Source: Candidatus Omnitrophota bacterium
Lineage (GTDB): Bacteria > Omnitrophota > Gorgyraeia > Zapsychrales > Zapsychraceae
Direction: 5' to 3'
NCBI GenBank assembly: GCA_029261065.1
Contig: JAJDCB010000011.1
Location: 47,168 to 111,167, forward strand
Length of the DNA: 64,000 nucleotides
This document shows positions 1 through 63,500 of this stretch, one piece after another. Each line of letters begins with the position of its first letter. The stretch's first letter is position 1. A program made the translations under genes and the position numbers. The notes beneath the pieces were generated by a model. It was not told the origin of the DNA. It did not search any database and saw only the letters and a list, made by a program, of their open reading frames with translations.

Positions 1-560
1 TTGATGCCAAGGTTTACATTGATCAATAATGCGACTCAATCTTTAAGAGGAGCCACTCGATCCTTTGTGCATGGGAATTACAATCAATCCATCATCCAAT
101 TTACCAAAGCCATCAAACAATCGGATAACAAGTGGGATGAGCCTTATTTGGGACGAGGAAAGGTCTATTTGGAGCTTAAAGAATATAAATTTGCTGAAAT
201 GGATTTTCGAATGGCTTTATCTTTAGGAAGTGATAATCGTGAAGCGAAAATGTATTTAGGGCGTTCATTATACTTTCAAGGACAGTTTCATGCCGCGGAT
301 CAAATATTTTCACACCTAACGGTAGCTCAATTTGATCGTCGAGATTTTTATCTCTGGCAAGCAGCTCTGTTTATTCAATTAGAACAATGGAGACGTGCCC
401 TATTTGTTTTAAATGCCTATATTGATTTTATTCCTTCTCATCCGACGGCCCTGATATATCGTATCTATACACATACAAAACTCGATCAACTAGATTTAGC
501 GCATGAAGACATAAGAAGGCTTTTTGCCATTGGGTATGCTCATGATAAGTTTGATTTTAT
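1..560 (+). other. TPR-like repeat region (domain of giant ORF)
   Basis: Translation shows 34-residue helical repeats with the W/LG/Y...A...F...A pattern (e.g. ...GRGKVYLELKEYKFAEMDFRMALSLGSDNREAKMYLGRSLYFQGQFHAADQIF...). Confidence 0.5.
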
Positions 561-3500
561 TAAGGAGGAAATGGTAATTACTAATTCTGCAACATATGAT
601 CAAATAATTAACGCTTGGAGAACAGGAATAGAACAAATTAAAGCTTGGCAAGCAAACCTTGAAGCTTTAAATGAACGTGAAGAGAAAATTATACATCAAG
701 TTTATGATGCACAAATTTCAATCGTCAATCACAATAAGCGACAACGGGTTATTTTAAAATTACCGAAAACAAGTTCTTTCGAATATGTTCAGTCGCTTCA
801 TGAGGGCAATACGGTAGTTAAAATCCATGATAAATCTACCGATCAAGTGTTATTAGTTGGATACTACCAAAGTAACAGTAGCAAAGTCTTGTATATTCAT
901 GATGCCAAAAATATTTATGAGATAGGTCCCGGACAAATCTATGACGCAGTAAATTCTCCCATTCCCTATCATACACAAAACAATATTCCTGTAATAAACT
1001 TAGTGGATCTTCTGAAAGTTGATTCTTACGTTGACTCTTTTTTAAGTGTTGGTGTAAGTTCAAGTCCACTAACCATAGATATCCTAAGATTAGAAAAAAG
1101 ACGAACTAGTTTTACTGACGAAGAACGTGCTTATTTACATTCAGTCATTGAATATGCCTATGACAGTAAGCTGTTTTCTTATTCTAATTTAGCCCGTATA
1201 TCCAGTATTGTCGCCCCAAGGCCAATCCATAGAACAACTGTGGAAAGATTTATAGAGAATCCAAATAATAATTTTAACAAATCAGTTTTATTAACAATAG
1301 CTTACATTGTCGAAGACCTTCTAGACGATAACTTGGCTATAAGTTATCTCATTCAAAAGAATCTGGAAAGAGTAGAAAAAGTAGACGAAGTAGAAAGATT
1401 AAGAAAAGATACGAAGTATGCGCTTGATCAAAACATTTTTGAAATTTCTGAGATGGTAACAATCGTAAAGATGGAACCAACAGCCATCATTAATTTCTCT
1501 ACAGGTTTTCATGTAATGCCCACCCCTGATAACTTAGATGCCCTATGGGTTATTATGCAAGACATTAAACGTAGAGATATTCATGATTACGAGACAGGGG
1601 ATCTTCAAGCGCAATTAAGTCAGTTAATGGAAGATGGCCAAACAACAGAGCTCAGTTTAGCTCGTTTATCACAACACTTTGAAGATTCTTTTACGATGCC
1701 TCAATTGAGACGTTTTATGTACGGTCATGAGCCAGCGGCAAAAACCATTAGAGGTTTAATGTTGGTAGTAGGTCTATACAACGCACGCTCACAAATGGAA
1801 CAAGAAATTAAGACGGTACAAACGCAAGAACTTAAAAGGAGGCTGGAGCTTGTTAATCAAATGATCTTTGTAAGCCAAACGAATGAATCAATTATTCAAT
1901 TAAATGAGGAACAAAAGCAATTCGTTGTTTTAGTGTTAGGTTCGAGGGCTGTACTTGTTATGAATGAAGAAGAACAATTAGAGAAGGAAGAAAGAATACA
2001 AATAATTATAAAAACTAGAAAATACCAAAAATTAGAAAAAGAGCGTTTATTGACACAAGCACGAACAGAGATAAGAAATCAAAGAAGATTAAACAGAGAG
2101 CAGAAGAAAGAAGGAATGAGACGAGCCAAAGTACAGCGTAAAGAAAAGCGTAAGCCCAAAGTAGGAAAACATAAATCAAAAACGATAAAACCAAAAAAAG
2201 AAAGAAAAAATTCAAAAGCCTCAGTTAAAGGCAAACCAAAAACAAAACAAAAATTGCCTATAGCCCTACAGAAGTTGAAAGATGCTGAGAGCTTAATGGA
2301 AGAAGCAAGTACGATACCTTGGAGTTCTTCGCCACTCAAGCAACCACCTGATGCTCAATTGCAAGATATGGATAGAGTTTATATTTTGGTTATGACAATT
2401 TTAGGTATGTTCATATATAACTTTGCAGGACAGCTAAATATTGTTTTTGTAACGATTGCATTAACATTTGCAATAGGTGCCGTTTACCAGCTTAATAAAT
2501 ATAGAAAAATAAAATTAGCCAATATTGAAAGAATTTATTCACTCTCTAAAAATAATTATACATTTAAGAATCTTGTCGATGAAATATTATTTTCTGCTCA
2601 GTTAATTGGTGTTTTGGAAGTTTTTATTAGTGTAACAGGTGCGTTTCGTTTTGTTCTGGAGTTTCTCAAAGTTGGTTTTAATTTTTGGACTGGTATTTTA
2701 ATTCTGCTTACGACTCTTGGGATACCTCTATATGTCATTGCGTTTAAAGCGTTAAAAGATTCTCATGAGGATGACACGATTGATTTTGTAGAAAGATTAG
2801 TTCAAAAAACTAAAATAAAAGAAGAGGAAGTCGTTTCAGAAAATCAGGGTGTAAATAAGAAAGTTATGCCTTTAAAATCTGGAAAGGGATCGCAGGGACC
2901 TCCAGAAGTTAAAGATCGACCTAAGAAAACCTTACCTAGTGCTTCCCTTAATGCTCCTCGCGGACCAAGAAAAGCCAGCCAGAAAAATAGAATAACAACA
3001 CAAAACAACAAACCTACCCATTCTATTTCGTCATTTTTAGAACGATACAACAACGAAATCCTTCAAGGGCGTCTAAAAATTATAGTGGTACCAAGTAAAT
3101 TAAATAATCTAATCATCGACACGCCATTATATATCCAAGGAGATAATAGGGCTTCTCGTATGTTAATTACGTATATTCAAAAAGTCATTAGTCTAAACAA
3201 AGGTAATAAGAAAAAACAAGAAATAATCTTAACTGTCATCGGCACACGCAATGGCGTAAGACTTACAGGAACAATCAGCCATTCGAGATTACTTAATAAA
3301 AGGGAGTTAATCTCCATTAGGCGATGGCAAAAGGAAATGTTTTTTGATCTATTCGACGCTTTAAAGGGAGAGATCCGTGTCTCGATGCACAACAATCAAA
3401 GTATTTTAGTTTTAAACATTCCTTCTAAATCTTCTTCACCGCTTCAGATAAGTTATATATCAAGAAATATTGGAATAAACAAAAACAGATCCAGTGTCTT

Positions 3501-6500
3501 GGTGAGAGACAAAGGATCTGTTCTTATATATTCTAATAGCGCAAAGTTATTTCAGGAAGGTAAAGAAGATGCCCGACATGACGCCAATTTGGCCAACCCA
3601 GAAGATAAACATCGAACGAGTTATTCTGGATTCAAATTGAGCGAGTTTGCGTTCATATCTTTCCTCCAGATACTCAAGCAGATTTTCTCTAGATCGATGT
3701 TCAATTCTATCAAGCATGTTAACCAACGCCTCAGCTCCTTCTTCCGTGAGTTTATCACGAAGGATTTTTGGAATGTTTATCACAATTCCCATACCGTTCC
3801 CCTTTCTTTAAACAGATTATTACGAATGGATCTTATCGGGGAAACAACGTATTGGGGGATCCGGTATGTTTCAAATATAACATTGATCAATATATCCGTC
3901 AAGATTTTTGCCTCAAGCCCTGCCCGAAGAATAAAGGCTGAAGGAGGAATTTTTGGAGTTCTTAATAGGGTTAGTCGGATTCGAGAATTTTTTGAGAATA
4001 GAACGGTAAGGCGTGATCCGCATGACAAAATTGTTTTAATGACAGAATACATAGAAGCAGCGTTTGAGAAGTTTAAATCAACGGAAAGTTGGGCGCGGTC
4101 AAATCATGTTATAGCCTTGGCGGTGGAGTTAGAGAAGATTGAAGTTTTTATGCATTCTTTTGTTTCGCGGAATAAGAGATATGTTCAGCAACTGGACTAC
4201 GTTGTATTACTTAATATTGTTGGTATTACGCAACAGTGGTTACAGATGATAGAAGGTCCTTCTGATACAGATGAGACAAATATGATTCATCATGAAAAGA
4301 AAAAAGAGCGAATTCAAGAAGCTCTAGAAACAAGAAAACGAGTTGAGGATTCATTAAAACGTTCAAACAAACCTAATCGAAGGCATAGCTCATCATCGGC
4401 ATTAATAACAAGGGAACTTAGCCTTAGTAAAGCATTGATTAAGAAGGTCAGAAGGACAGGCGAACTTGTAGTATCTGTCTGGGGATCGGCAAGAGTAAAG
4501 ACGCCGAGTTTAACTCAGCCATTAAAAGATGCTGAAGACTTTGCGAGTCAGATCGGAGAAAAGATAGAAATTAAAACAACAGTAGTGACAGGTGGAGGCC
4601 CTGCGATTATGGAAGCGGGAAATAAGGGGCAGAGATTGGCCGATCCTAAGTTCAAAGGTCATTCTATTGGGTTATCTATTGCGTTACCTTTTGAGCAGTA
4701 TTCAAATACATTTTTAGATAAGAACATAACTTTTAAATATTTCTTCACCAGGATTTTGACCTTTTTGCAGTTAAGTCATGTCTTTACAGCTTTTAAGGGA
4801 GGAGCGGGGACCCTGCATGAAGTGTTTGAAATTTTGGTCTTAAAAGATAAAGGAGATACGGATGCCGAGGTTATCTTAGTGGACAAATCATTTTTTGGAT
4901 TGATTCAGGTCATATTAGAGAAGATGAAGGACCTTGGTTATGTCCGTCATATTTCTGATGAGCTTATTTATATTGTTGATTCGGCGAACGATGCTTCAGA
5001 GTATTTAAGAAAACAACGTAATAAATTATTGGCCCAAATTGAACTAAGAAGAAAGCAAAAAGTTGATTTTAAGATAACGGATATTATTAAAGACTTTAGA
5101 CAAGCAAAGAAGGATTTTGCTCATGTTAAAAAATCGGTAGCGATTGTTGGATCAAGTTACATGACAAAAGAAAATCATCTATACACTTATTTACGATTGT
5201 TAGGATTAACACAAGGGTTATTTAAGGAAGGTTATACCCTTCTTACAAGAGGCGGTTTAATTACGCAATCAGCTCATGAGGTCCTTGAGAAGCAGGGTTT
5301 AAGTGAAGAAAGATTAATCCGTGTCGGATTAAACGGAGGAGATAAGTTAAGAGATGAATTTATCGATGGTATATCGCCCAAAAAATTCAAAGATATTAGA
5401 TTCTCTCAACGTTTTAGCCGTGATGCGGCGATGGAACTGGCGGCTAAAGAAGGCATCATCTTCTTCCCAGGCGGTGTTGGCACGATGTTAATCTTTAGTC
5501 GAATGTTAAGTTTACTGCAGACAGAAAAGTTAGATAAAGACAAACAACACAAACGACCATTAATCCTCGTTGATTCAGAGTTCTGGAAACCGGTTGATCA
5601 ATGGGTTCAACAGGCGATTGATCAAGGGCTTATCAGCAAGGTGGTCAGAAGTTATTACACCATCATTGATCTTGATGAGAATGTAACAGAGAAAGTTACC
5701 GGTATTCTTCGTTCAAATCAGATTGCTTCAAGTCCTATAATTAATGAAAATGACAAATCTGATGGTGAAGATTCTAATATTCACTCTTCATCGCCAATAA
5801 CAGATTTTACTTTGGATGAGAACATCGGTTTACACCTCCAAAGTGAAATTCAGTTGAGTTCACCTATGAAGAAACTTAAGAAATTGGCCAAAGAGAAGCA
5901 TCTAAGTCTTGAATTTTTTATGCGTATCGAGAAATTAGCACCCACGCACAGAGAAGATTTAAAAGCTTTATTAATTGATACCATTTTTCCAAATGTTATT
6001 GATAACCTATCATTACTGCAACAGCATTTTTATGATAAGGGGATGCGTTTGAGAGCGTTAAAAACATTCATTAGGAGTCTTAAAAAGGTTCAAAAAATTC
6101 TAAGTCAATATTATCGAAAGAATTCAAGAAACAAAGTTTTTCAGAACATTTATAAATTTGTGGATGGAGATGTTTTTCATAATCTTTTTCAAGCTCTTAT
6201 TAAATATTTTAGTAAGAAAAGTAATGAGTTTTTAGAGCAGGAAGATGTTCAAGAAAATATTAAGGAGCTTCATAAGTATATTCTAGACGTCATCCATATC
6301 ATTAGTACTTTAGATTGGTTGCATGATGCACCTCAAGAAGGACTTATAAAAGATGTTCATTTAGGAGTAAACATAGATTGGGCAAAGATGATAATTGGTT
6401 TTGATCCTTATTACGTAGAGAGTCTAATGGAATCATTAAATGAAAGAAGTATTTTAGATGAATTTAATCATTCTCATGGAAAAATATCAAATCTTAAAAA

Positions 6501-9500
6501 TTTATATTTTGAGAGTATTACTTTTGTTTTTATGGAAGTTTTATTAAATGCGATTTTTTATGGCAGCGATAACATAATTATTAAAACACGTTTGGAACGA
6601 AATAGGAAATATGTGGTTATTGAAATAGAAAATAAAGGTCGTTTAGGTGTTGATGAAGATAAATTATTCAATTTTTATCGTAGCTTTGCTGGTAAGAAAC
6701 TTGATATCGCGGTAACGGGTGATGGTTTTGGTTTAGCTTTGTCACGTCTCTTTGTGGAGTTACATGGGGGGACAATTAGAATTGAAGATTATAGAAGTTC
6801 ATCAGAAGAAAATTGGGTGCGCACAACAATAAGGTTGCCGAATGTTTCTAGTTTAGATGCTAATAGAAGAAAACAAAAGTTATTTAGAGAAAAGAGATCT
6901 TCAATGTCCCCAATGATAGAGCTAATAGACAAAGAAAAATTTAACTGGGATCATTTGAATCCTTTGTCTCAAGCTCCGCCGAAAGCTAATGCGTCATTTA
7001 AAAAGACCGCCACCTCCAGTCCACTTCAAACCCTCACAATTAATACAATTGACGTTAGTTTAAACCCAGTCCTTGACCCAACAGTATTGTCCTGGATGTT
7101 AGTGTTAGTACCTTTAGCTATTTTAGTTTTCCTTTTCCATTTTGCAGCCCATTATGTATCAAATGATCATCGACTTACCCAACTTAGAGAATGGTTTGCT
7201 GCTCAAACACGGGATCAGTTGTTACAAAAAGTTTATAATTCCGAAATGGGATTTTTTACAAGTCCATATTATCAAATAGCGAAAGCTGAGCGAAAGATTG
7301 CAAAGAGAATTGTTGCCCTCATAAAAAATCCAGAAGACTTAATGCAAGAGCCAAAGGTATTTAGCGATGTTGCCATTAAGACGCAATTGATAACGAGATT
7401 AAGACTCCTTTCCTTACCGATTGATTTTGTTATGGCTGTCTTGTCGGAGGTTAGTCAAAAAGATAAAAATTTAATGGTTCAAGAAAAGGCAAAAGAAGTA
7501 TTAAGCCGCCTAAGAGCTATCGGTGAGCAGTGGAGCAAGTTTACTCAAGCCATCTCTATAAGAGACAAAGATAATGATAATGAAGGGGCGTTAAAATTAT
7601 TTGAAGAAATTGAAGAAATGTTGCCAGATTGGGAGGCTGTTCATTTTGAAAAAGGAGTTACCTTTGAGGAGATGCATCGGTATGAACAAGCAGAACAGTC
7701 TTTTCAAGAAGCGGCAACATTAAGTAATAGTTCAAGAGCTTATACGAGATTGGGTCAGTTGCGTAATGATCGAAGAGATTATGAGGGCGCACAAACAGCC
7801 TATCGACAAAGTATTACAGCGTATAGAGGAGATTCGCAAACGTTACACTATTATCTCGGAGATGTTCAGGCGGAGTTAGAAAATTATGACGAAGCGATTC
7901 AAAATCTCAACGTAACAATCAAAGCCAAATCTCGGAGAAGCGATGAGATCAAGATGCGAAGGGATGCTCACCTAAGACTTGGTGAGATTTATGTTTATAA
8001 AGGAAATAGAGATAAGGCCTTACATAATATAGAAACGGCCCTTCATACAACAAAATTACAGGTAGCCATTGATTTATTGCCGTCTCTAAAGAAGTATATT
8101 TTTAATCGACCTGAAGGGCAGGAATTTTTTGAAATGTTGCAAGATTCAAAAATGTTTTCAGAAGAAAAAGAATCGATTCTAAAAATTATTGATCGGATAC
8201 AAAGCAACACAACAATTCAAAAACAATATCCAGAGCTTATGGTTAAGTTGGATGTTGAATTTAGGAGATGGGGCATGATGCCCAACATCAGTGAAGCGAC
8301 TAAGAAATCACTAAGGCTTAATGCAGAGTCTGTTGGAGCAAGAGTTGATCGTTTTGACTTTACTGTAGAGATGCTAAATATTTATACTTCTAAAGATTAC
8401 CAGATTTCAGATCGTTATTTTGTTGTAGAGACAAAATTAGTTCATTTGTATTTTATTCAAAGACAGACAGCGCGATCGTCACAAGAGTTATTATTTTTTG
8501 TCCAACGGGTATCTGATAAATCAATTCAATTAATTATCCCAGAGGATAATACAGTTATCACTTTACACGGTGATCAGCTTTATTGGCAAGGTTTACCTAT
8601 TAATACAATAACGCCACCCACTATATATCTGGCGGATCTCCAGCATTTAAGCCCGAGTGTGAAGAAATTTATTTTAGTTTCCAGCCCGATGCCCCCCCCA
8701 TCAGAATCAAGGCAAGAAGGAATTCCGAATTTTCAGGTTACTCGTGTATTTGTACTTATTCATGCTCTTTTATTTATCGTTTCACTATTGGTTAATTTAT
8801 CTTATAACGGTTTATTTATAGTATTAAGCGTTCTTGGAGGATTAATCGTTGATCGAAGTTATGGCGGACGAACGATAGAGCAAGTCTTTAGTGGGACAAT
8901 GATCTATGATCGACGGCTATATCAGTATATCCGTCACCCCATTTATCTTGGGTATAGTAATATATTTATAAGTTTATACTTGGCCACAGATTTATTTGCG
9001 ATAGAAATGTTTTCTTTAGTGTTATTGGTAGTGTTTTTACTAGGAATTATAGACGAAGATATCGCATTGAAAAATAAATTTAGTGCAATGGCAGAAACAA
9101 CCGATAATCCACAGGGGATTGCGGAAGTTGCCGCATACTTTGAATACAAAAATAAAACGCCTATTATTCTACCTAAAATTAGAAATATTAAATCTATGGT
9201 GATTGATATTATTTATGGAGAAGGATCATCGCCATTCAAAGGAATAAAAACCATCTATAAAGTCTGGAATATTCTTCATTTAACGTCGTTGTTGCTATTT
9301 AAATTATCCTTAAAAGGGATTTGGAAATTTATACGGGCTGCTTATTATTCGCCATTTAGATTCATTAGTTTTGTTGCAACGTTGGATAAACGAAGTTACA
9401 CACTTTTAAAATACATTGATCGTGACGGAGATGTGAACCTAAATCAGGTTTTAATTGATCTAGATAAAAATTTAATTTTTGGAATATACGAAGTAGTTGA

Positions 9501-12500
9501 CCTAAATATGTTTGAAGGCGTAATGAAAGTGCTTGGAGTTGATTCGAAACATATAAGAATTAAATCCAATGGGGCTCCATGGATGTTGCATCTTTTTGAT
9601 ACGTATCAAATGATGGGTTGGGGTGGCTATAAAAACGGAGTTCGAATTGAAAACTTAGATATGACACAATTTAGCTTTGTTTTTCATACACTATTTATGC
9701 CTAATGCACCGTACAAGTATATTTTGAACAAAAGAAGTCAACAGAAGATAATACAAAAAAGAAATCACACGCATTTAGATTCGAGACGAAAGGTAGTTGT
9801 TGTTGGGTCCGTAAATAGAGAGAATGTTGATTTTCTTGTCGATATTTATAATCAATTTGAACCCACTCAAAGGCCGTTATTGATTTTTGCGATGAGGAAC
9901 GATAATCAAATGACGAAAGAAAATCTTTCCTTTAGAGATGATATAAGCGTTGCCACACGTAGATCCGTTGATCCCTATTTAACAGCACAAAACATACCAT
10001 TTAAAGACTTAGATGTTGTTATTTTAACGACCCAAGGTGAATTGAAAGATTTATATGCAATCGCAGATGTAAGTATTATAGGACCAGATCAAAATATGAA
10101 TGAGTCTATGACAAATGAAGTCTTTACATTCCATTTTGGTAACAAAAATGAGTGGATCAATAACGCGTTAATTTTAAAAATAGCCAAAAAGTTTAATGCC
10201 GTCAAACAAATCCGTGTACCAACATTTTTTATAGACTTACAAGACGCGTTAAATAATCCAACTCAAAAGCAAGGAGCTCTTCGTAAATCTAATGAATACT
10301 TCGATAACATTATCATACCAACAGAACAGTTGCTTGCCAGATTATATATTGCCAACGCCCTATTAGGAGACGTCAAGACTGGCTCAAGTCCTCTTTACCT
10401 AATAGAAAGTGACAGGCACCAATTAAGCTCGCCCATGAGCGGGAATCGAAATAAAAGGGTGCCTGTCACGGATTATTTTTTTATTAGAAATTATTGGAAA
10501 TTTCGTCGTAAGGCACAAGTGAATGACGTGCATGTTGAAGATAGCATTGATGCAGAATTTACGACAGATAAAGAAGGAGAGGTTAAAGAAGACCCTTCAT
10601 CAGCTCTTAAAGAGCAAGGAGAAGGATATGGTTATAAACAAATTGTATTAAATATGACATCAATTTCAAGCCCATTAAATCCATCAGATATAAAGAAAGA
10701 GGGTATTGAAAGGGTTGTTCAACAATTAAACCAAAATGGTTTTAGCCAAAGACAATCTGAAATTATCGCGGATGAACTTGTCAGTAGCCTTAAGTGGCTT
10801 AAACGATGGTTTGCTAATTTTGAGGAGCTTAGTAAAAAACAACAAAATAAAATTTTAAAAGACGCCCTTTGGTATAGCAAAAATTTAAAATCTTATAAGA
10901 CGTATAAACATATTAGAAAAATTAAATTTTCTAGTCATTTGCTTAGCTTTATTATTATGTTAGTTGCGTTAAGAGGGATAGTTTTTGACGAAGACTTCTT
11001 GGTTTTAAATTGGATGACGTTAGTCCTTAGTATCGTATCAATTTTATTAACTATCGGGTATGAGATTTGGGATGTTATAACGGATCAAGGGTATTATTTA
11101 GAGAAAACAAACTCGGTAAAAATCAGAATTAAAGCTACGGATAATGAATCAAAATTAAGAGAGCGTGTCGCTCATGAGTTAGCGCATGATTTTCTTAAGA
11201 AAGAAATCGTTGTTGAAGCCTTTGCTCGTTTACGTCTTCTAGCAGGAGGACATCAACATATGAATCCTGATGTTGTCAAAGTCGTCGAGGAGTTTCCTGG
11301 TGATCTCAAAAAGGTTCAAGAAGTTCTTAAAGCCAGAGCCAAAAAACCAACAGGCATTTACTCTTATATTATTCTTAAATTCATCTATCCTTCCATATGG
11401 GAATATGATTACGCTCATCAACTTGCACAAGTCATCTATCATCTCTCCCAATACAACGATAAACGAGCCTTCCAGACGGTATTTCTATTAAATAAAAAGT
11501 ATTCTCTAGAAAAAGCATTAAAAATGAGTGCTGAGTCGAGTTCTGCAATGAGTGTGAAAGCCAATGATAAGAAGGTAAGAAAAATAACAAGTGACAGGCA
11601 CCAATTAAGCTCGCCCATGAGCGGGAATCGAAATAAAAGGGTGCCTGTCACGGATTATTTAGTTAATAGTTTACAGTTTAATTCATTAATAAGCTTAGAC
11701 GGCTTTAGAAGCAATTTAGAGTTAACCTCCAGCGAGAGAATAGGTTCTCGAGAATTGACCCTATTTATTCCTGTTTTTGCCAATTTAGCAATGAGACGAT
11801 CAGAGGAAGCTGGACGAGCGAGGCGGACATCAAAGCCTTTTTCACGGAGTTTGAGTGATATTTCTCTCGGTATATTTTCATCACAAATAATACGCATTAT
11901 TCAATTTTTTAATAGTTTACCTAAACGCTACGGATTCGCCGCGTTTCATAAGGTCACTGGCAAAGGAAAGGGCCGCTTTAATGTGCTGTTTGGTCAATTG
12001 AGGATAGTAACGGGTAAAAATCTCCGATGGGCTAACACCCGCTTGGAGAAGTTCAAGTACCAGGTAAACCATTATGCGAGTACCTTTAAAGCAGGGTTTA
12101 CCGTGGCAGATTTTTGGATTGATAGTTATATAATTTTTATAATTATTCATAAAAAGAAGTTCCAGCGCTTGATTAATATATTTAAAAGTAACATAGATAA
12201 TTCTTTAGGTCAAGTTGCGGTTGCGGAAAGTCGTGGACTTGGCTTTAGGCGTTCTTTAGTAAGCGTGAGCGAAGACATCATTATCCCGCAAGCAAGCTCA
12301 TCTCCGCTTAGCAGTAAGAAAGATCTATATAAATATAAATTTAATCAGATTAACTGGAAATCGGAGCGTCGTCGCGTGAAAGAGGCCCTTCGCCAGGTTA
12401 AAAACGGCAGACGCTTTAGCAATCGCATTACAGCATATGTGGATGGAGAACAAATATGGGGTAGGTCGGGACATAATGATATTTATGACTGGATGCCAGA

Positions 12501-54500: not shown

Positions 54501-57500
54501 AATATATTTAGAAGAAATTGAACCTCTTGTCGAAATTTTACATTCTAATAATGCTTTTACCCGAATTATCCGGTTTTTTGGAGAAGATTATGTTAGTTTT
54601 GTACAGAAATTAAGAGATGAAGGGCAATTAACCAATTTCAGTCAGATTGTTTTTAATATTGTTAAGGACAAAAGGCAACATGCTGTTGTTGATATTGAAG
54701 GAGTTTTTATCGTACTTTCCAGTCGTGAATCTTTGGTTAAGAATTATGTTTCAGCTGATTGGGAGAGTTTTGAAAAAATAATTAAGGAGTATTTCCATCA
54801 TGTTGGTGTTATTCATCATAAATTATTTCAGTACTTCGAGAGACATCGTCATGAACCAAGATTGATTGAACAATTAAGAGAAGATGTCGAAAGAGAGTTG
54901 TTTAACATTGCCTGGGGTGGGTTTAATGGATTTAGTAAGGAATTCAACCAAAGATACGATTTTAAAATGGAAGATGAAATTATTTTATTGAAAAAGTATC
55001 TGCCTATAAAAAATGTTGGAGCCTTGGAGTCTGGTAATCTTTATAAGCGGGTTGTTCAAGCCATTCATGCGCGTGGACAACAGTGGCAGGATGAAGTTGA
55101 TCATTCAATCCGTGATAATGTCCTTGTTGTTGCAGGTGAACAGAATGTTTGGCAAATAAAGGAAGGAGAGGTTATAGATTCAACATGGATAGATGGGGTT
55201 TTAAGATTATTAAATCAAGATAATAAGGATCAGCTAGATTTAAAACAATTACTTGAGCAATATATCAGTACTAAACAATGGCCAATAGAAAATATTCAGA
55301 CGGCAGCCCTTCTTTGGATGATGGAAAACTTAGATTTAAGAGGGCGATTTGATAAAATGCGTAAATTATTGATGTCCAATAACGGTAAAATATGGGATGA
55401 AGATGTCGCAAAGTATCAGCAAGCAATAGATGAAATTCAAAAGTTATTTGAAGATACGTGGATTCATGATGCTAAAGAACATAATCAAGATAGAGAGGGT
55501 TGGAGCTCTTTAGTTAAAATCGTGGCAAGTGAAACGACTGAGGCAAGTAGAGTTATGATGTTTGAAAAGCTACCACGAAAAGCACTTAAAAAAGTATTTA
55601 AAAACTTAGATTTAGAACTTGTTCCTGCTCAGATTAGTCAAAGTTTATCGAAAGGTATTAATCTCTCCTTATGGGATGATGAAAGCTTTGAGAGGTTAAG
55701 AAGTGAATTATGGAGGAATAAGTTAGTTGAGAGGGCGATTAATCATGTCAGTCAGGCTAGAGAAATTGTTGCTAACTCTGATGAATGGTTGGTTGTACGA
55801 TCGGATATTAGTGAGGGAGTTAAACTCATGATGCGTGATGAATTAGATAAACGGTCTAAAAAAGGATCAATATTGGGAAGACTAGGTTTAGGGGCTCAGC
55901 AGAAGAAGGCCGATCAACCAAATGTACAATTTATGGAAAATATTCTTACAAGAAAACTTAATGACCTGTTTTTACCTATTCTTAATCACGTCTTAGATGA
56001 ATCTAGTAAATTGGAAATTGTTACAGTTTCAAGTAAGAGTAAATCTGTTGTTATTGGTGTCTTTGATGATGCTATGCATGAAATGGGAGGTTTAAGTACA
56101 GGTGTCTGTACGGCGTGTGAGCGTGATAAGCAAATTGAAGATACTCGGTATCATTTTATGAAAATGGCAATTAAGGAACCAGGAATTCAAGAAGGCGGAC
56201 GCGTTTTAGGATGGTCACAAGTACAGCTTGTGCGTGAGTCAATCACTGATAGACCTGAGAAAGAGAGTGCCAAAGGATGGAAGGTTCTTGCTATGCCTGG
56301 AATTAATATGCTTGATGGTATCGAAGCCAATGGCATAGGTAAGAGACAAGGTACCTTATTGGTATTGGAATATGCTCAACGATTAGCTAAAGCCGCCGGA
56401 ATGCAGGGTGCTGTTATACCGATAGCAGGTGTTATTCGTCATCAAAATTCTCAAGGACCAGAGGCTAAGATGGTTAATGAGTTATATGCGCAGGGGTTTT
56501 TAAGGAAGGCTAAATTAAGTAAGAGCGTTGATTTATCTTCTAGTTATTCTTATGATGACGTTTATGTCATTGAAATTCCTGAAAGTCAAATGGTGACAAA
56601 AGATACTGCTCTTTCCAGTTTAAGTGACATGTTGAGAGGTTCGCAAGAGATGAAAGAACAAATTTCAACTGATAATAAAAATGAGTCCATTGATATTAAT
56701 TTCCAGGAAGGAGTTATTCAGATCAATGGTTATCAAGACCAAAAGGCGTCACTCTTGGCTGTGTTTAATGAAGTGCAACATTTGTATAAAGATATTCCCG
56801 CACAGATTAAAGAATATCTTAATCGCTTAGGTATAGAAGGCCTTATTCAAATAAATGTGAATGGACCCACACGTTTAATAAAGACAGAGGAGCCAGAGCC
56901 TAGGGTTGTTTTGACGTTAGGAAATGATATTGTTTATGAGCCTGGAAAGGTTGAACCGATTGGGATGAGTCAAAGTTTCTATGAAATGATTGTTGCGTTA
57001 TTATTACCTGATTATGAATTTCTGAAAGAGAAATCAATCTCTAATGAGAATGCGTATTTTAAGGTTGGCGTTATTAAAGCCTTACTGAATCGAAAATTAA
57101 ACTTTGAATTTTATTACTGGGTGATTAACAAGCTTGTATGGAGTAAGAGTTATTACCTCGCCGAAAAGATTGACTCGGAGAAGAATCAAATATTGTCTGA
57201 TGTAAAAACAAATTTAGATGAGTTTACGCAAGGAAAGAAGAATACTTCTCAATGGAATGTACTCTTAAACGTATTTGGCAATTCAGATCCAGATTTTCTG
57301 ATTGCCAATTATATCCATGTCTTATTGAAAGATCAAATTCTTACAGAAGAGCAGATAGTCATGATGATTAGTCAAATCAGCAAGATTAATATAAATGAAA
57401 AGGTAAGTTTGGCCTCGTTGCGTAATGTTGTTAAAGATATTTTATTAGAAGGCCATTTCCAATTGAGGGTAGAAGATGATGTCAAAGATTATGTTAATTT

Positions 57501-60500
57501 TAATTATTTTGATCAGACAGAATCTATACAACATATTTTCAACACATTGATGCAAACTACAAATTCTAATATCTATTACAGCCAAAGGCGAAATTTATTA
57601 AGTTTAATGTTGCCATTAAGTGAAGAACAACTCAATGATGAGATGGAGCGCATTATTGAAACAAATTCATTTGATGTTGTTAATCGTAAAGAAGCTGTGC
57701 AGAATCAACTTACATCGTTGTTAATTAGAAGGGTTGGTCAAAATGCCTTTGATAGTTTAATAAGGTATTTATCAGCAGAGTCAACTGAGAACATTCCGTA
57801 TGTTGATGTATTTGCCCAAAGCCTTCCAGAAGGCGCTAATGCGGATGACTATAGATTTATACAATATAAAGCAAGAGATGACAGTCAGGGAAAATTTGAT
57901 CTTGTATATGAGGATCTCGTGGGAGATGAAATTTCCAAAGATTATAATGATTGGATTCATACATTATTTCCAATCAATGATCATGGCGCCTCCAGTCCTA
58001 TAAAAGGAAACATCTTTGAATCCCCCAATTACGTCTATCTCCAAACCAGCAAAGCCGATAAGTTACATATGTTAGGAGATAATAATCGTATTGCTTCCGC
58101 TATCATTGAAATAATCCAACCACGAGCGCCACCGGTTAAAATTTCTTCACCTGTCAATTCCTCTGTAACTATTAATGAGAAATCTATCTACTTGACCCCT
58201 TCAAGAAATGTCAATGCTGAGATTATTACAATGGACGTAAGTAAGGTTAATGTCGAATTATTTGTAGATCCAAAGGTCTTAAATAGGGATTTTATAACAG
58301 AGCCTCCTTTTGAACCGATTAAAAATATGGGTATAACGATCGAGGAGTTTGTTGAATTCAAAACAGGAGATCAAAGAGTCATTGTTGCATTTAATGGTGT
58401 CCAGCCTAATTGGGAAGGATCATTCTTAGCGATTGTTAATGGCAAATTAATGAAAAAGGAATATGGCGCGCGCGGTTTATTCCAAAAGGAAAATGCTGCA
58501 GTTGATGGTAAATTTTGGTTTATTAGTTTTGATTCAACAAATAAGAGTGTTTCCGAAATTGTTATTAAGAATGGTCAAATATCTGGTGAGACAACATTTA
58601 ATAATGCCATTTATGGTCCAGCTATTATTCGTGATGGTGTAACTTACGTTGATACGATTGAATTTGGTACAAAACCAATACGTACGGGACAACAATTAAT
58701 TTGGAGAAGAGATGTGGCAATGGCAATGTCGGCCATTGGATATAATCAAGCAGGAGCTTTGGTTCGTGTCGCTGTCTTTGAGAATATTACGATTGATCAG
58801 TTTGTAAATATATTGATCGAACAAAATTTAAGAGATGCCATTCTTCTTGGCACAAGTGCTGATGTAAAAACTTATCAGAATGTAACAATACCATCCTATC
58901 GGATTGCTGAACCAAGACCTGAATCTTATACGGCCCACTTTTATCCTGAAGAAAGACCGTTGGGGACATATATTGCTGTCATACAACCACGAGCACCACC
59001 GGTAGTAGAAGGAAAAGACAACGAGAAAGATGCCAGTAATTCTTCTCCCATCTCTCCTAAAAGTAAAAGCAGACGCTTTAGAAGTAAAAGCAGACGCTTT
59101 AGCAAAGTGATTGGTATTTCTAGGCTTAGAGAAGAAATCAGGGTGAACGATTCTTTCGATAGCTTGTTAATGTCAAATATGTCAGCGTTTCTTGACACCA
59201 ATAATTCCAGAAATCGAGTTGCTAGTCCGTTGGATAATAGCAAAGATGTCTCAAATAGAGACAGCAATTCTCAGCAATCTGATCAAATAGATCCGTTGGC
59301 TCGGTTACGTTTATTAAACTTTGAATATAAGTATCTAGTTGCTTTACTAGATTCTAGAACTGATATTCATCGTATTGTGCGTTTATTAGGAGCTGCGATA
59401 TTCAAATTTCAGTTGGTCACGTATATCATGAGTCATAACCCATTTGTCAGTTTACCTAAATTAAACAGTTTGATTTCAAAAATTAAACAAAAAAAGGTTC
59501 TTCCTCCGGAATATTATCAAATATATTACGATTATCCTCTCGCATATGGAATAAAACATTTAGAAAATGTTAAGTTTATCTCTTATGTTCTCGGGGTTTT
59601 ATTTATCCAAGGAGGACTAGGTGAGGTTAAGCCAATCCTTGACGCATTCTTTAGAGAAAATCTTGATTGTGCTACTTGCGATATAAAACCTAAAAGATCG
59701 CCATTAGTTTTATATCCAACGGGATTAACGCATAATAATTACCACAGTTCTTTTGTGAGTCATTTAAGAAAAGTTATGGCCCCATTTATTCCTGCCAATA
59801 GCCAGAAAAAGGATATGGAACAGACAATAAGTCATGTTATTTATCCAGGTGTTTTAGATGGCACTGAATCGCAGGGAGAAGAATATTATTTTATTTTAGA
59901 CAAACGTTATTCCATATTAGGGGATGCTGTTCTCACGTATATTGTAAAAGTTAATTTATGGAAAAAATTAAAGTTTACGCGTAATCATAAAACTTTTTCT
60001 GAGCTTTCAATCGTCCTTGAAAAGAATGTTTTACTTAATGAGATGATGCGGAATATTTTAACCTTATGCCCATGTGACATCAAAGGATTTAATGATCACC
60101 ATTATGCAGATCTATTTGAATCTATGATCGCTGTAGTCTACGTGGCAAACGGAGAGGGTGAGCGAGGTATAGAAAGAGCAACTGCCTTTGTTATGGACCA
60201 ATTTGTTCAGTTTTTTAGGGCGACAAACAGACAACTTTCGCCGGAGATGGAACTCTTTCTTGAACAAAAATCCCCTAGCGGAGAATCAAGTTCTTCCCCT
60301 GTTGTTCTATCAGAAAGCTACAACAACCGCATCTTTCCAACTTTAATGAAGGATCTTCTTGATAAGGCCCAAACAAATGGTTATGCGATTCTTAGTATTT
60401 CGGGTCTTCCGGGGTTAGGTAAGTCAACGACTGCCCGGGCGTTTGAAAGATATTTGAAAGAACAAGGCGTTGCCGCGCTTTATATAGAAAGTGATTGGTT

Positions 60501-63500
60501 TGGAAGACGTGATTTTAGAAATTTAAAGCTTATTTGGAAGAATCCTTTTGAATGGTTTTCTGTTTTCTTTGTTGGAGTATTATTTTATTTTCCAGGGTTG
60601 TCCGCCTTAAGAATATTAAAAATGTTGTACAAAGTATCTTTTAATCAAAAACAAATAGGGGATGTGATTAATGGAATCAGAAAACTTTCCGAGAACTTTG
60701 ATGAAGTCATCATCCCTTTTAATAGTCCTGTTCCCCAAGCACCTAAAGAATTACGATTAAAGAGAAATGGTATCCTTATTTTGGATGGCATTGATTATGA
60801 AAGTCTCTATGCTGAGTTAGCGGCAACAAGAAATATACTCCTTAAAGGAACCTATCCCCTTATGCGTAAATCCTTCCGAGATAGGGAAATCAAGCAATTC
60901 AATTTCTACAAGTTTTTCGCTTTTATAGGTTCCTATATATTTATTAATCCGAAATTGAGAAAGTACCTACAGTTAAAGCAAGGAAGATTCGAATATATTC
61001 TTCAAGTGCAAGATCGGGATAATCCTATCCTAAGAAAGAAGTTGCGAGGATCTTCGCCATTTAAAAAAGAATTAGGCCTTCAAGCGGATGTTCGTTATAC
61101 AAATAGATTGATGAGTGGAGTTTCAAAAGGGACAGCTCTTACAATCACATTGAGTTTGTCTGTCTTTGTTTTCATTCTAACTGGCGATACGGCAGCACAG
61201 ATATTAGAATTAAAAAATTCGCTTCTGATCGGTGCAGATAGTTTTGAAGGTAATTCTCATTTTGTATCTCCTAGTACGTACTCATTAAAAGATCATTTAT
61301 TAATGTTATTAGCCGGTTCAGTTATTTATCTAGTGGTCATTTTTATGTCGGTCTTAACCCGAAAGATTTTCTACTTAATGGCAGAAGAATTTGGTTTTAG
61401 ATATGAACAAAGACATGAAATTTCAAAACGTTTCTTTAAATTATTTAGACGAAAAACTTTTAAGTATCCTTATCCGCATACAACGGGCTTTGGCCATACA
61501 AAAGCTATTAATTTTTATAGTAAAAAGGCAAGCCGATTTCCTTGGAGGAAGAGAAAGACGTTGGGTCTTAAGTCTAGCAAAGGTGCATTTTCTGTTTTTG
61601 CTGTGCCACATCCGCAAACGGCACGTATGGATAAATTAAAATTAGGTCTTATCGACGTCGTGATAGTTAATTTACAAAAAGTTGATTTGTTTGTAGCCGG
61701 TGTTTTAGGTGTGATTTGGGTAGCCTATGTTTTTGAATCGCATGGAGCGACAGGAGCCACTTTGGCAATGGATATAGGGATAATAGCCTTAGCTATCATG
61801 TATATGAAGTTTTTAAGAATCCTATGGGATGAACTTTCAACCAGCTTCTATAACACTGGGGAACAATTTAAATTATCTCGAGCGCCTCCTCGAGAAAAAA
61901 TATCATTCTTTAGATCAACAATATTTTTTGGCCTAAGCTTTTTTATTAGTTTCATTTTCTATGTCAATATGGCCAAAGGAGTATCCTACCTATTTGATTT
62001 ACCTCAACAGGTTAAGTCAATCCAGCTTTCTAAATCCGAAACAATGAGCAAAATGCTTGCTCACCGTTACCTAAGACAATCTGTATTACATACTCAGGAA
62101 AGATGGAGAAATCATTTTATATATATTGAGAGCAAAACACAGATAATTGCGGAAGGTTTGGAGGAGCATAATCTATTTATATTCTTACAACAAAAACTTA
62201 TCGATGGTTATTTTAGAGGAGATGGAATGAATGACGAGTCTAAGATTGCAGTGACGACAGAGTTTTTAACGGGCTATCCGTTATCTTACTTCTTAAATCA
62301 AGGCGTATCACGCGTCATTATTGAACAAGTTCCATATGAATCAACGCAACTAAGTATCGCAGAGAAGAAATTGCATGCGCAGGCCATAGAGTTCTTTATT
62401 GAAGGCAATTTTACTCAATATATAGAAATTCTTCAAGTTTACATAGATAAAGCGATAACGATAGAGAAGAAACGAAGAAAAAGGTCTAGAGAACACATAG
62501 AGTATCTATTAAAGGAATATCCAAATACGGACCTAACTATTTTAAGCAATACAACGCTTCAACCAATAATGGCTACCGTTGATAGGCATCATTCTTCAGC
62601 CCAATATAACCATATTGAAGTTGATCCGGGTTTTAAAGAAGGCGCACATCCAACGGAAGTAGTTGTTCATCATGGGACTTACGACAAGGAATTAGCCAAC
62701 AAGGATAAATGGATGGCCATGGTATTTCCTTATACTATTTTTGCGACCATAATGGAGGAAAACGGTTTATCAGAATATGCAAGTAATGGAAAAGCGTTGG
62801 AGATGAGTAGAGAAATGATCAATCAGACCGACATCATAAAAGAATTAGAAAAGCTGTCTCAAACCTTAATGGAGGAACAGCTTCAGGATGCCCAAGGGGA
62901 TCGGTCGAAGAAAATTTTACAGTTATTCTTTCAGTGGGTAAGAAAATTAGAATTAGATACAGGAACGCAAATAATACCGGGTGATATACGTGAATTTTTT
63001 AAGCCGAAATTGAATTTTGTAAAAATGATTAATGATGACATGAGTGCATCGAAAACAGATGACCGCTTTACATCTTCGCCAATGGCTATTGTAAGATCCG
63101 ATCGGTCACCTGAATTAATCGTATTAAATACCGTTGCTCAACAAAGAATCGCTAGACGACGCAACGTTAATACTTTTATTCAGGATAGTCTGGATAGGCA
63201 ATTATCAACACCTGAAAAGATAAAAGTTATCAGCTTTTATTTTGATTCGAACGAGTTTATTTATGTTGTTTTCTTTACACTTGCTGGGGTTGTCTGGGTT
63301 CATTTGGAGATAGCAAAGCCGCGAATTGGTATTTTAATTCCAGTCTCGATATCTAAAAGGAAAATTGATGTGGGAATGCCTTGGGTAGAAACGAATGAAA
63401 AATTTATGGATAAAAATGCTGTGTCTTTATTTACTCCTCTTAAAGGAGTCGCACCGAGAAGTGTTCAATCTTTGATTAAGAAAAAGGTGAAGGCATTATT

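Follow-up and report, generated by a model that had tools for sequence, protein, structure and literature searches.

In a 64,000-nucleotide (nt) stretch of the genome of a Candidatus Omnitrophota bacterium (assembly GCA_029261065.1, contig JAJDCB010000011.1, positions 47,168 to 111,167 of the forward strand; this whole stretch is termed the window), a single giant open reading frame (ORF) encodes a multi-enzyme chain in which a short peptide, Ser-Ser-Pro followed by a hydrophobic residue (SSP-hydrophobic), is the punctuation between protein-sized modules. We consider this motif to be kept in place by selection at the peptide level, most likely as the recognition site of a dedicated endopeptidase, a reading to which we assign a probability of about 0.5.

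The ORF occupies frame +1 as 21,333 codons with zero stop codons and runs off both ends of the window; stops number 1,019–2,226 in each of the remaining five frames. G+C content is ~36%, and G exceeds C and A exceeds T along the coding strand throughout the window. The ORF is well above the 10,000 codons without internal stop that set the lower bound for an Omnitrophota giant multi-enzyme protein, and, as compared with published domain lists for these proteins, it is tiled with many unrelated Pfam families and has no dominant repeat. Internal paralogy is slight and internal repeats are few; a simple hydropathy scan gave ~100 transmembrane (TM)-like peaks along the chain, and recognised domains account for 2,139 residues (10%).

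1..63999, + strand, giant ORF, a mosaic of enzyme-sized modules (stop-free frame, Pfam)

An earlier note, made by reading the sequence, had put SSP at about 55–57 copies where chance would give a handful, with about 50 copies followed directly by L, I, F, M or V. Upon comparing pattern counts with the expectation from composition and with 1,000 shuffles, both estimates held: SSP occurs 59 times vs 3.9 expected (maximum of 12 in shuffles), and SSP followed by L, I, M, F or V occurs 51 times vs 1.3–1.4 expected (maximum of 6), a 40-fold excess. SSP is the top-enriched tripeptide of the ORF (15-fold, vs 4.4-fold for the runner-up), and the example positions given in the note were right to 0–7 nt (SSPI starts at 5728, not 5735, and SSPM at 5857, 8680 and 16186). 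The residue after SSP is L in 19 sites, I in 12, M in 11, F in 6 and V in 3, with Met the most enriched (11/59 vs 2.2% background). The preceding residue is small by preference (S 14, T 10, G 6, A 5), K follows the tetrapeptide in 14/59 sites, K or R follows the hydrophobic residue in 16/59, and the flanks otherwise carry little information, giving the consensus [S/T/G/A]-S-S-P-[L/I/M/F/V]-[often K]. Since one-residue variants are not enriched (no copy of TSP, STP, GSP, SAP or SGP precedes a hydrophobic residue, and ASP does so twice), this is a sharply defined recognition motif rather than a loose linker composition.

The motif is conserved at the peptide level and not at the DNA level, as the same note had gathered from its varying codons. 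SSP counts in the other five frames (1, 3, 5, 4 and 19) stay close to expectation (2.2, 4.3, 5.7, 3.7 and 20.3, respectively), every one of the six Ser and four Pro codons is in use, and codon usage within the motif approximates ORF-wide usage (Pro, p=0.51; second Ser, p=0.07; first Ser, p=0.017). An excess restricted to the coding frame, combined with free codon choice, places the conservation in the peptide, and synonymous codons randomised around an exact peptide indicate purifying selection on that peptide. A nucleotide-level signal was rejected for the same two reasons, the restriction to the coding frame and the varying codons. Eight sites lie inside DNA repeats (four in an 87-nt repeat, D2, and four in a 286-nt family, D1), and by our own count ~54 sites are independent once repeats are discounted. 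Gaps between sites (mean 356 amino acids (aa), median 250 aa) are bimodal, with 13 short gaps of 6–51 aa between tandem sites and 47 long gaps of 80–2,493 aa, whose median, estimated at ~320 aa, is an ordinary protein size. All sites are given below with nucleotide coordinates, strand, position of the SSP in the ORF and flanking residues.

1060..1071, +, aa 354, GVS-SSPL-TID
2326..2337, +, aa 776, PWS-SSPL-KQP
3433..3444, +, aa 1145, SKS-SSPL-QIS
3913..3924, +, aa 1305, IFA-SSPA-RRI
5728..5739, +, aa 1910, QIA-SSPI-INE; first of three tandem sites
5788..5799, +, aa 1930, IHS-SSPI-TDF
5857..5868, +, aa 1953, IQL-SSPM-KKL
7015..7026, +, aa 2339, TAT-SSPL-QTL; 59 aa past first HATPase_c
8680..8691, +, aa 2894, ILV-SSPM-PPP
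9226..9237, +, aa 3076, GEG-SSPF-KGI
10384..10395, +, aa 3462, KTG-SSPL-YLI
10426..10437, +, aa 3476, HQL-SSPM-SGN; in D2 copy 1
10666..10677, +, aa 3556, TSI-SSPL-NPS
11608..11619, +, aa 3870, HQL-SSPM-SGN; in D2 copy 2
12298..12309, +, aa 4100, QAS-SSPL-SSK
14065..14076, +, aa 4689, SIS-SSPI-NYN
14839..14850, +, aa 4947, EGQ-SSPT-KAS
14857..14868, +, aa 4953, TKA-SSPM-RIN; start of arginine-deiminase-like module
16186..16197, +, aa 5396, DQG-SSPM-NKV; end of arginine-deiminase-like module, 20 aa past homologous core
18976..18987, +, aa 6326, KRV-SSPF-SKT
19525..19536, +, aa 6509, IST-SSPL-YQE
19594..19605, +, aa 6532, QMM-SSPN-PLQ
20971..20982, +, aa 6991, GTN-SSPL-ALR
22300..22311, +, aa 7434, EGT-SSPL-GGK
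23692..23703, +, aa 7898, KNG-SSPA-KRS
24427..24438, +, aa 8143, SGS-SSPL-KLA
24727..24738, +, aa 8243, LRS-SSPF-LSK; then TM-like segment
25306..25317, +, aa 8436, NPV-SSPF-IEN
25438..25449, +, aa 8480, HQL-SSPM-SGD; in D2 copy 4
25765..25776, +, aa 8589, KRP-SSPI-QAI; in D1
26938..26949, +, aa 8980, KGP-SSPL-ANL; in D1
27211..27222, +, aa 9071, DND-SSPK-TNR; in D1
27235..27246, +, aa 9079, NRP-SSPI-ENK; in D1
27955..27966, +, aa 9319, HQL-SSPM-SGN; in D2 copy 5, start of 320-aa methyltransferase module
28915..28926, +, aa 9639, KPT-SSPV-KEV; end of methyltransferase module
29167..29178, +, aa 9723, LKP-SSPI-HDL
29911..29922, +, aa 9971, KIN-SSPL-KTL
29974..29985, +, aa 9992, QNT-SSPI-SNV
32380..32391, +, aa 10794, EST-SSPI-KTN
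32524..32535, +, aa 10842, GRE-SSPI-ALF
35734..35745, +, aa 11912, NYG-SSPI-KKE
35809..35820, +, aa 11937, RKT-SSPM-VRS; start of 1,104-aa glutamate dehydrogenase module
39121..39132, +, aa 13041, VIA-SSPL-DKN; end of glutamate dehydrogenase module
39826..39837, +, aa 13276, RGS-SSPL-HGD; then TM-like segment
40309..40320, +, aa 13437, AIH-SSPE-EFA
40345..40356, +, aa 13449, FSK-SSPY-FIT
40768..40779, +, aa 13590, PTS-SSPM-STD
41740..41751, +, aa 13914, KQS-SSPF-III
42343..42354, +, aa 14115, IYT-SSPL-KSK; start of 350-aa histidine-kinase module, D4 repeat directly after
43393..43404, +, aa 14465, DAI-SSPL-IVN; projected histidine-kinase C-terminus
44590..44601, +, aa 14864, NSS-SSPL-EAT; end of Mpv17 / GNAT-like module
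50494..50505, +, aa 16832, TSS-SSPS-KTS
50512..50523, +, aa 16838, SKT-SSPL-IPI; start of 2,493-aa HEAT-repeat module
57991..58002, +, aa 19331, HGA-SSPI-KGN
58144..58155, +, aa 19382, VKI-SSPV-NSS
59041..59052, +, aa 19681, ASN-SSPI-SPK; start of RNase III module, D4 copy 2 after
60292..60303, +, aa 20098, ESS-SSPV-VLS
61051..61062, +, aa 20351, LRG-SSPF-KKE
63073..63084, +, aa 21025, RFT-SSPM-AIV

The sites fall between recognisable domains, a further claim of the earlier note that is borne out here. Recognised domains contain 0/59 sites compared to 5.9 expected (P about 0.003). Relative to random positions, the 15-residue flanks are enriched in polar residues (z +5.5 upstream and +5.0 downstream) and depleted of hydrophobic ones (z -6.1 upstream and -3.5 downstream), and the smoothed hydropathy minimum falls at the site itself. 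TM-like peaks located 5–40 aa away are rare upstream (1/59 sites vs 5.9 expected) and not rare downstream (9/59 vs 5.9 expected), a pattern that fits sites preceding rather than following membrane-anchored units. A signal peptidase I site was rejected as an identity for the motif given this upstream scarcity and a Pro that comes after two Ser; a sortase, exosortase or rhombosortase signal was rejected given the downstream figure and the internal location of the sites.

The best-resolved domain edge beside an SSP site is that of the second HATPase_c domain: the SSP at aa 14465 begins 3 aa past the end of the Pfam match (aa 14462), and for 105 out of 120 free-standing histidine kinases the projected C-terminus falls at aa 14461-14491. 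In an AlphaFold2 model of the kinase region, built with 60 free-standing histidine-kinase homologues, confidence is >90 up to residue 510, through the last strand, and <50 at residues 517-523, with the SSP at residues 516-518; two further SSP sites within the same model lie in low-confidence coil. For the arginine-deiminase-like module, the ends of free-standing homologues do not all match the end of the module in the window, so coincidence with a natural protein terminus is firm for the histidine kinase only.

Units running from one SSP to the next can have the size of the single enzyme that they hold, such as 320 aa (aa 9322-9641) for one methyltransferase and 350 aa (aa 14118-14467) for one kinase ATPase domain. 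A short motif recurs at the junctions of independently folding units, as in polyproteins. The earlier note had also tied unusually long SSP-free gaps to antisense cassettes. The gap it singled out (32.53-35.74 kb) is real and corresponds to one module of 1,070 aa, but the antisense explanation is not supported, as the minus strand at 32500-35800 carries only ORFs of <=148 aa, as expected opposite a long ORF; the long gaps correspond to large modules, namely those of the glutamate dehydrogenase, the HEAT repeats and the transglycosylase. The domains recognised along the ORF are as follows.

In the ORF, + strand, TPR repeats (Pfam)
aa 1550-1668, +, Lysine_decarbox/LOG domain (Pfam)
aa 2174-2280, +, first HATPase_c (Pfam)
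aa 5095-5376 (nt 15283-16128), +, arginine-deiminase-like module (motifs read by eye in an alignment, no Pfam match)
near aa 6768, +, methyltransferase, weak (Pfam)
aa 9394-9481, +, methyltransferase (Pfam)
aa 12345-12731, +, glutamate dehydrogenase (Pfam)
aa 14356-14462 (nt 43066..43386), +, second HATPase_c (Pfam)
aa 14572-14627, +, Mpv17/PMP22 (Pfam)
ending before the aa 14864 site, +, GNAT-like stretch in the Mpv17 module (read by eye)
aa 15948-16047, +, transglycosylase, weak (Pfam)
from aa 17033, +, HEAT_2 repeats (Pfam)
about aa 19969-20051, +, RNase III (Pfam)

To place this motif in a wider context, we turned to related proteins. A 3,000-aa protein query found no close relative in genome or metagenome contig collections. 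In word-indexed protein searches, residues 5001-10000 matched a single protein among 5.8 billion (P0121), residues 1-5000 gave no match at E<=1e-12, and the 801-aa histidine-kinase region matched ordinary histidine kinases only. P0121 is a complete protein of 6,720 aa from an Omnitrophica metagenome-assembled genome (locus L001, 6195-26357), and the module that it has in common with the window is the arginine-deiminase-like one (window aa 5095-5376 vs P0121 5126-5419; 35% identity, E 2e-47); a methyltransferase had been considered for this role and was rejected once BLAST identified the true common module. A HMMER search with the module returned 48 proteins, and all matches with a named source (P0121, P0122, P0124 and P0164) belong to Candidatus Omnitrophica / Omnitrophota. 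The module, shared only with Omnitrophota proteins, shows 35-44% identity to them, and one of the few conserved Cys positions falls within it; its HxDT and G-C-L-G-C motifs recall arginine deiminase / amidinotransferase, although it has no Pfam match, and P0122 carries it in three tandem copies.

P0121 contains only two SSP. A different motif recurs there: RSELR occurs 10 times (a 340-fold excess) and the pattern [RK][SA]E[LVIM][RHK] 21 times, including tandem copies 14-38 aa apart. Its codons vary freely, and RSEL occurs in none of the 11 genes neighbouring P0121. Furthermore, a receiver domain starts ~10 aa after one RSE motif, and CheR and Methyltransf_23 each end ~20 aa before the next. 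P0121 and three further giants recovered through the shared module, P0123 (7,652 aa), P0160 (5,930 aa) and P0168 (6,157 aa), carry 14-22 copies of R-[S/A]-E-x-R each. Pooling these four proteins under a slightly looser pattern gave 77 RSE-type sites with a mean spacing of 282-386 aa, close to the 356 aa between SSP sites. At position 4, L occurs in 35 of the 77, I in 13, M in 13 and V in 7, the preceding residue is A, P or S, and Ser is replaced by Ala in 10. In P0123, motif-to-motif units of 218-280 aa enclose a PP2C, a methyltransferase and a weak HATPase_c (below the Pfam cut-off). In the window, SSP sites at aa 4953 and 5396 border the shared module; in P0121, its borders are RSELR (4908) and RSEMR (5521). 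SSP-hydrophobic is present in none of the relatives.

The two motifs have a common skeleton, a small residue followed by x-S-x-(L/I/M). In each, position 2 is Ser and position 4 shows the order L>I~M, which fits homologous recognition enzymes with drifted specificity. SSP-hydrophobic therefore appears, on these sequence comparisons, to be one lineage's form of a wider punctuation code. Other recurrent strings were seen in additional relatives: GLEE occurs 8 times in P0129, and, by eye and without statistics, 'GPGAMNIDEP' recurs several times in P0164 and 'QNRAQF' follows each copy of the shared module in P0122. In P0121 itself, the string 'PLTL(T/S)LSPEGRG.GEG' recurs in-frame near RSELR junctions (residues ~995-1015, 2180-2200, 3885-3905, 4590-4610 and 6455-6475); it resembles translated intergenic repeat elements and parallels the D2 repeat of the window, as if junctions behaved like intergenic DNA.

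The giant ORFs are also alike in their cysteine content, which is 0.03-0.3% across them, RSE-type proteins included, and 12/21,333 residues (0.056%) in the window, compared to 0.78% in the 11 neighbour genes of P0121. As these neighbours have normal Cys, the depletion belongs to the giant genes and not to the genome, which suggests strong selection against free thiols in giant proteins specifically. Proteins exported unfolded are typically Cys-poor, so this composition would fit export before processing. All 12 Cys of the window are paired at close range, as CxxC in five cases and CxC in one, with no isolated Cys (residue scan).

aa 4799/4802, nt about 14395-14406, + strand, Cys pair
aa 5367/5370, nt about 16099-16110, +, Cys pair
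aa 7998/8001, nt about 23992-24003, +, Cys pair
aa 18703/18706, nt about 56107-56118, +, Cys pair
aa 19890/19893, nt about 59668-59679, +, Cys pair
aa 20023/20025, nt about 60067-60075, +, Cys pair

Several junctions of the window additionally carry DNA repeats.

10401..10487, + strand, D2, 87-nt repeat, reference copy; encodes SDRHQL-SSPM-SGNRNK.VPVTDY
11583-11669, 12594-12680, 25413-25499 and 27930-28016, +, other D2 copies, 62-94% identity to the reference
25483-27246, +, D1/D3 repeats, a 286-nt unit three times; TM segment, then 'IKPLRAPP...SSP'
42352-42432 and 59077-59157, +, D4, 81-nt repeat; encodes KSKSRRFSKV..ISRL.EE

D2 is a junction element that brings its own SSPM site: its five copies are always read in the sole open one of its three frames, and SSPM is present in four. 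It forms a hairpin with a perfect 12-bp stem (GTGACAGGCACC/GGTGCCTGTCAC, -30.6 kcal/mol, z -5.7). In this it resembles the small hairpin elements usual between genes, here placed in-frame at module junctions. Neither Rfam nor tRNA scans matched D2, and searching genome and metagenome contig collections for its 23-nt core turned up no copy. D4 lies right behind two SSP sites separated by 16.7 kb. For the window as a whole, the Rfam and tRNA scans likewise returned no match.

An exact, peptide-selected motif, its position at junctions, and a lineage difference with kept layout together make a dedicated endopeptidase the simplest mechanism. The tetrapeptide would be the recognition site of this enzyme, which would act on the giant precursor while it is exported or afterwards and split it into individual enzymes and membrane proteins; short spacer peptides would be set free between tandem sites, and the motif would differ by lineage as the specificity of the recognition enzymes drifts. 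If the cut fell after the hydrophobic residue, the site would be similar to what subtilisin-type S8 enzymes prefer, small-small-Pro-hydrophobic; a cut after Pro would instead give module N-termini of M, L or I followed by K or R. Cleavage, its enzyme and its timing are what we infer. The earlier note had proposed a polyprotein cut by a dedicated protease, and this is the best available reading, to which the parallel of R-S-E-hydrophobic-R adds weight; what the window does not supply is a protease domain. Overall, the observation behind that proposal is confirmed and its interpretation partly supported, with the junction motif established and cleavage plausible from the sequence patterns described above.

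A candidate processing enzyme emerges in the relatives. P0121, P0123, P0160, P0168 and P0122 begin with an N-terminal segment that we read as signal-peptide-like, after which comes a conserved domain (termed the head domain) whose QDAH, EG, RD and GGFH motifs are invariant. This domain has no Pfam family, and a sequence-profile search of the PDB gave noise only, so its placement comes from fold comparison alone: an AlphaFold2 model (confidence 70-90 over residues 60-435) matched EreC, BcR135 and ChaN in Foldseek (probabilities 0.99-0.51), with RRSP, an effector of MARTX toxins, also among the best structural matches. RRSP and Tiki are proteases of this fold group. An EreA/TraB/RRSP-like head domain may thus be the processing enzyme in the relatives, which we treat as a lead and not a finding.

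A number of points weigh against recognition of SSP-hydrophobic by a dedicated endopeptidase. Some units are far larger than the domain they enclose (605 aa for LOG and 1,104 aa for glutamate dehydrogenase), and two SSP-bounded units reach 1,968 and 2,493 aa, indicating that SSP is absent from some domain boundaries and that not every one is marked. Ile, the second commonest hydrophobic residue in the motif, is poorly accepted at P1 by classical subtilisins. Pfam recognised no peptidase family among the 21,333 residues of the window, part of an ORF that continues beyond it (no S8, C39 or C80 match). The fold group of the head domain also holds esterases and a haem-binding protein, making a protease role only one possibility, and the N-terminus of the ORF lies outside the window, so that a head is not visible there. 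Genome, metagenome and protein searches gave no close ortholog in which the positions of single SSP sites could be compared. Finally, there is no direct cleavage evidence for any Omnitrophota giant protein, a re-analysis of proteomics having been too sparse (West-Roberts et al. 2023, bioRxiv 10.1101/2023.11.21.568195).

Beside the peptidase search, two HExxH motifs were seen, HELAH at aa 3725 (nt ~11173) and HELLH at aa 9829 (nt ~29485), vs an estimated ~0.5 expected; the SSP-bounded units that contain them are 314 and 248 aa long, and Pfam gave no metalloprotease match. Full-length Omnitrophota giants are reported to have an N-terminal signal or protease region and SecA-like domains; no SecA domain was found by Pfam within the window, both ends of the ORF lying outside it.

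We weighed several explanations that require no cutting of the chain. The motif Ser could be covalently modified (phosphorylation or O-glycosylation), or the motif could be a docking site for a chaperone, secretion or assembly factor, with the chain left intact. We regard this as unlikely while taking it seriously, as the SSP and R-S-E motifs have only the position-2 Ser in common, the sites lie in exposed polar linkers, and the window has no protease match. Ser/Thr-Pro kinases and most O-glycosylation systems, however, take both Ser and Thr, and Thr never stands in place of Ser here; proline-directed Ser/Thr phosphorylation is accordingly not supported (TSP and STP with a hydrophobic residue, 0 each vs 51 for SSP), and the Ser-Pro phosphorylation alternative of the earlier note is weakened. 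Moreover, Ala, which is unmodifiable, occupies the Ser position in 10/77 RSE-type sites, tandem sites 6-25 aa apart are better explained by redundant cutting, and neither modification nor docking requires the sites to coincide with natural protein ends. A purely structural linker or hinge, such as a helix-capping Ser-Pro turn in an uncut protein recognised by no enzyme, would account for the linker-like flanks and the low AlphaFold2 confidence at the sites, and helices often carry Ser-Pro at their N-terminal ends. Such a turn should tolerate T, D, G or A for Ser, though, whereas one-residue variants show no enrichment; known linkers offer nothing like a 40-fold excess of a single exact tetrapeptide, and relatives carry the chemically different R-S-E-L-R at the same junctions, which speaks for a co-evolving recognition partner rather than a physical property. 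We therefore hold the structural explanation to be distinctly improbable.

Explanations rooted in DNA or translation fared worse. The motif might be a neutral scar of module joining without present function, left by a gene end and start or as the footprint of a D2-type insertion: D2 stands with its SSPM at junctions in five copies, D1 and D4 also cluster there, and the enrichment of Met after SSP (11/59 vs 2.2%) together with K or R next (16/59) resembles native N-termini. We think this very unlikely, because ~50 sites share neither DNA nor flank similarity, randomised codons around an exact peptide require purifying selection, and the hydrophobic codons are mostly CTT, CTC, TTT, TTA and similar rather than one-step neighbours of ATG, with T, K and R nearly absent. 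A role in translation, through internal initiation at the hydrophobic codon or 2A/StopGo-like skipping, would suit modules that look like complete proteins, and 24/59 hydrophobic codons could in principle start translation. Shine-Dalgarno-like sequences nevertheless lie upstream of only 10 sites vs 9.8 expected, ATG, GTG or TTG make up only 12/59 of these codons, and no stop codon occurs anywhere in frame; the motif is also unlike the 2A/StopGo consensus, D(V/I)ExNPG-P, and a nascent signal of four residues would be much shorter than known bacterial arrest peptides, leaving this idea with scarcely any likelihood. That the pattern is an artefact of chance, composition or DNA repeats has next to no probability: eight sites do fall within DNA-level repeats, but shuffles reach at most 12 SSP compared to 59, the other frames are at expectation, and ~54 sites are independent.

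Recognition by a dedicated endopeptidase can be compared with known systems. The window is most like the Omnitrophota giants described as 'Archaeovorin' (West-Roberts et al. 2023) and as a 'multi-enzyme metabolic cluster' (Nielsen & Lui 2026, bioRxiv 10.64898/2026.06.07.730766), with which it shares a stop-free ORF of >21,000 codons, tiling by HEAT_2, HATPase_c, TPR, Lysine_decarbox, methyltransferase and transglycosylase domains, many TM-like segments and few relatives. HEAT_2, HATPase_c, TPR, Lysine_decarbox and methyltransferases are among the frequent domains of these giants (bioRxiv 10.1101/2023.11.21.568195; 10.64898/2026.06.07.730766). Unlike in the window, no junction motifs have been described for them: neither West-Roberts et al. 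2023 nor Nielsen & Lui 2026 mentions junction motifs, linkers or spacers, and a literature text search returned nothing relevant on RSE-type pentapeptides. Cleavage has been proposed from the C39 and S8 domains of some giants, with the cleavage points said to be unknown and to block analysis (West-Roberts et al. 2023, bioRxiv 10.1101/2023.11.21.568195).

The secreted MARTX toxins (multifunctional autoprocessing repeats-in-toxin) of Vibrio, like the window, join several unrelated enzymes in one very large chain. Cutting beside a hydrophobic (Leu) residue in the unstructured linkers between effectors sets these free. They rely on an internal C80 cysteine protease activated by inositol hexakisphosphate, a family with no match in the window, and they hold about 3-5 effectors separated by loosely defined linker sites, compared to 45 or more modules and an exact tetrapeptide here. 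Viral polyproteins cut by a dedicated protease (picornavirus 3C, potyvirus NIa, flavivirus NS3) combine many mature proteins in one ORF and carry a short virus-specific motif at every junction that varies by lineage, and the SSP and RSE-x-R pair parallels such a varying motif with kept layout; the window differs in its cellular host, an ORF several times longer, its content of membrane proteins and metabolic enzymes, and cleavage that is here only proposed. In multi-cassette RiPP precursors (such as cyanobactin PatE), recognition sequences of 4-5 residues flank the cassettes and are read by S8 proteases, and AAPF, AAPL and AAPM, classical subtilisin substrate peptides, follow a small-small-Pro-hydrophobic pattern similar to that of the window. 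RiPP cassettes, however, span 6-10 residues vs 80-2,500 aa for the whole-enzyme modules of the window, which has no S8 domain. Some giant proteins do contain S8 domains (West-Roberts et al. 2023, bioRxiv 10.1101/2023.11.21.568195).

What we describe is polyprotein-style punctuation in a cellular giant gene, and the SSP and R-S-E-x-R motifs, the cysteine depletion and the head domain are new with respect to the literature searched. Giant genes of Omnitrophota, 30-440 kb in length, pose a recent puzzle: whether each yields one chain or is cut, and where. The motif gives the first concrete candidates for the cut points of such giant proteins, predicts exact neo-termini for proteomics and permits rational splitting for structure prediction and annotation; furthermore, a different motif at the same junctions in relatives offers, through co-variation, a handle on the responsible enzyme. 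More speculatively, and with less than even confidence, we propose that the giant genes may act as protein-level operons, each a Cys-poor, exportable precursor cut at a lineage-specific code that co-evolves with its protease, perhaps the head domain; if so, every mature product would be predictable from sequence alone. If cleavage is confirmed, Omnitrophota would use a cellular polyprotein strategy, which on such a scale has, to our knowledge, only viral and toxin parallels.

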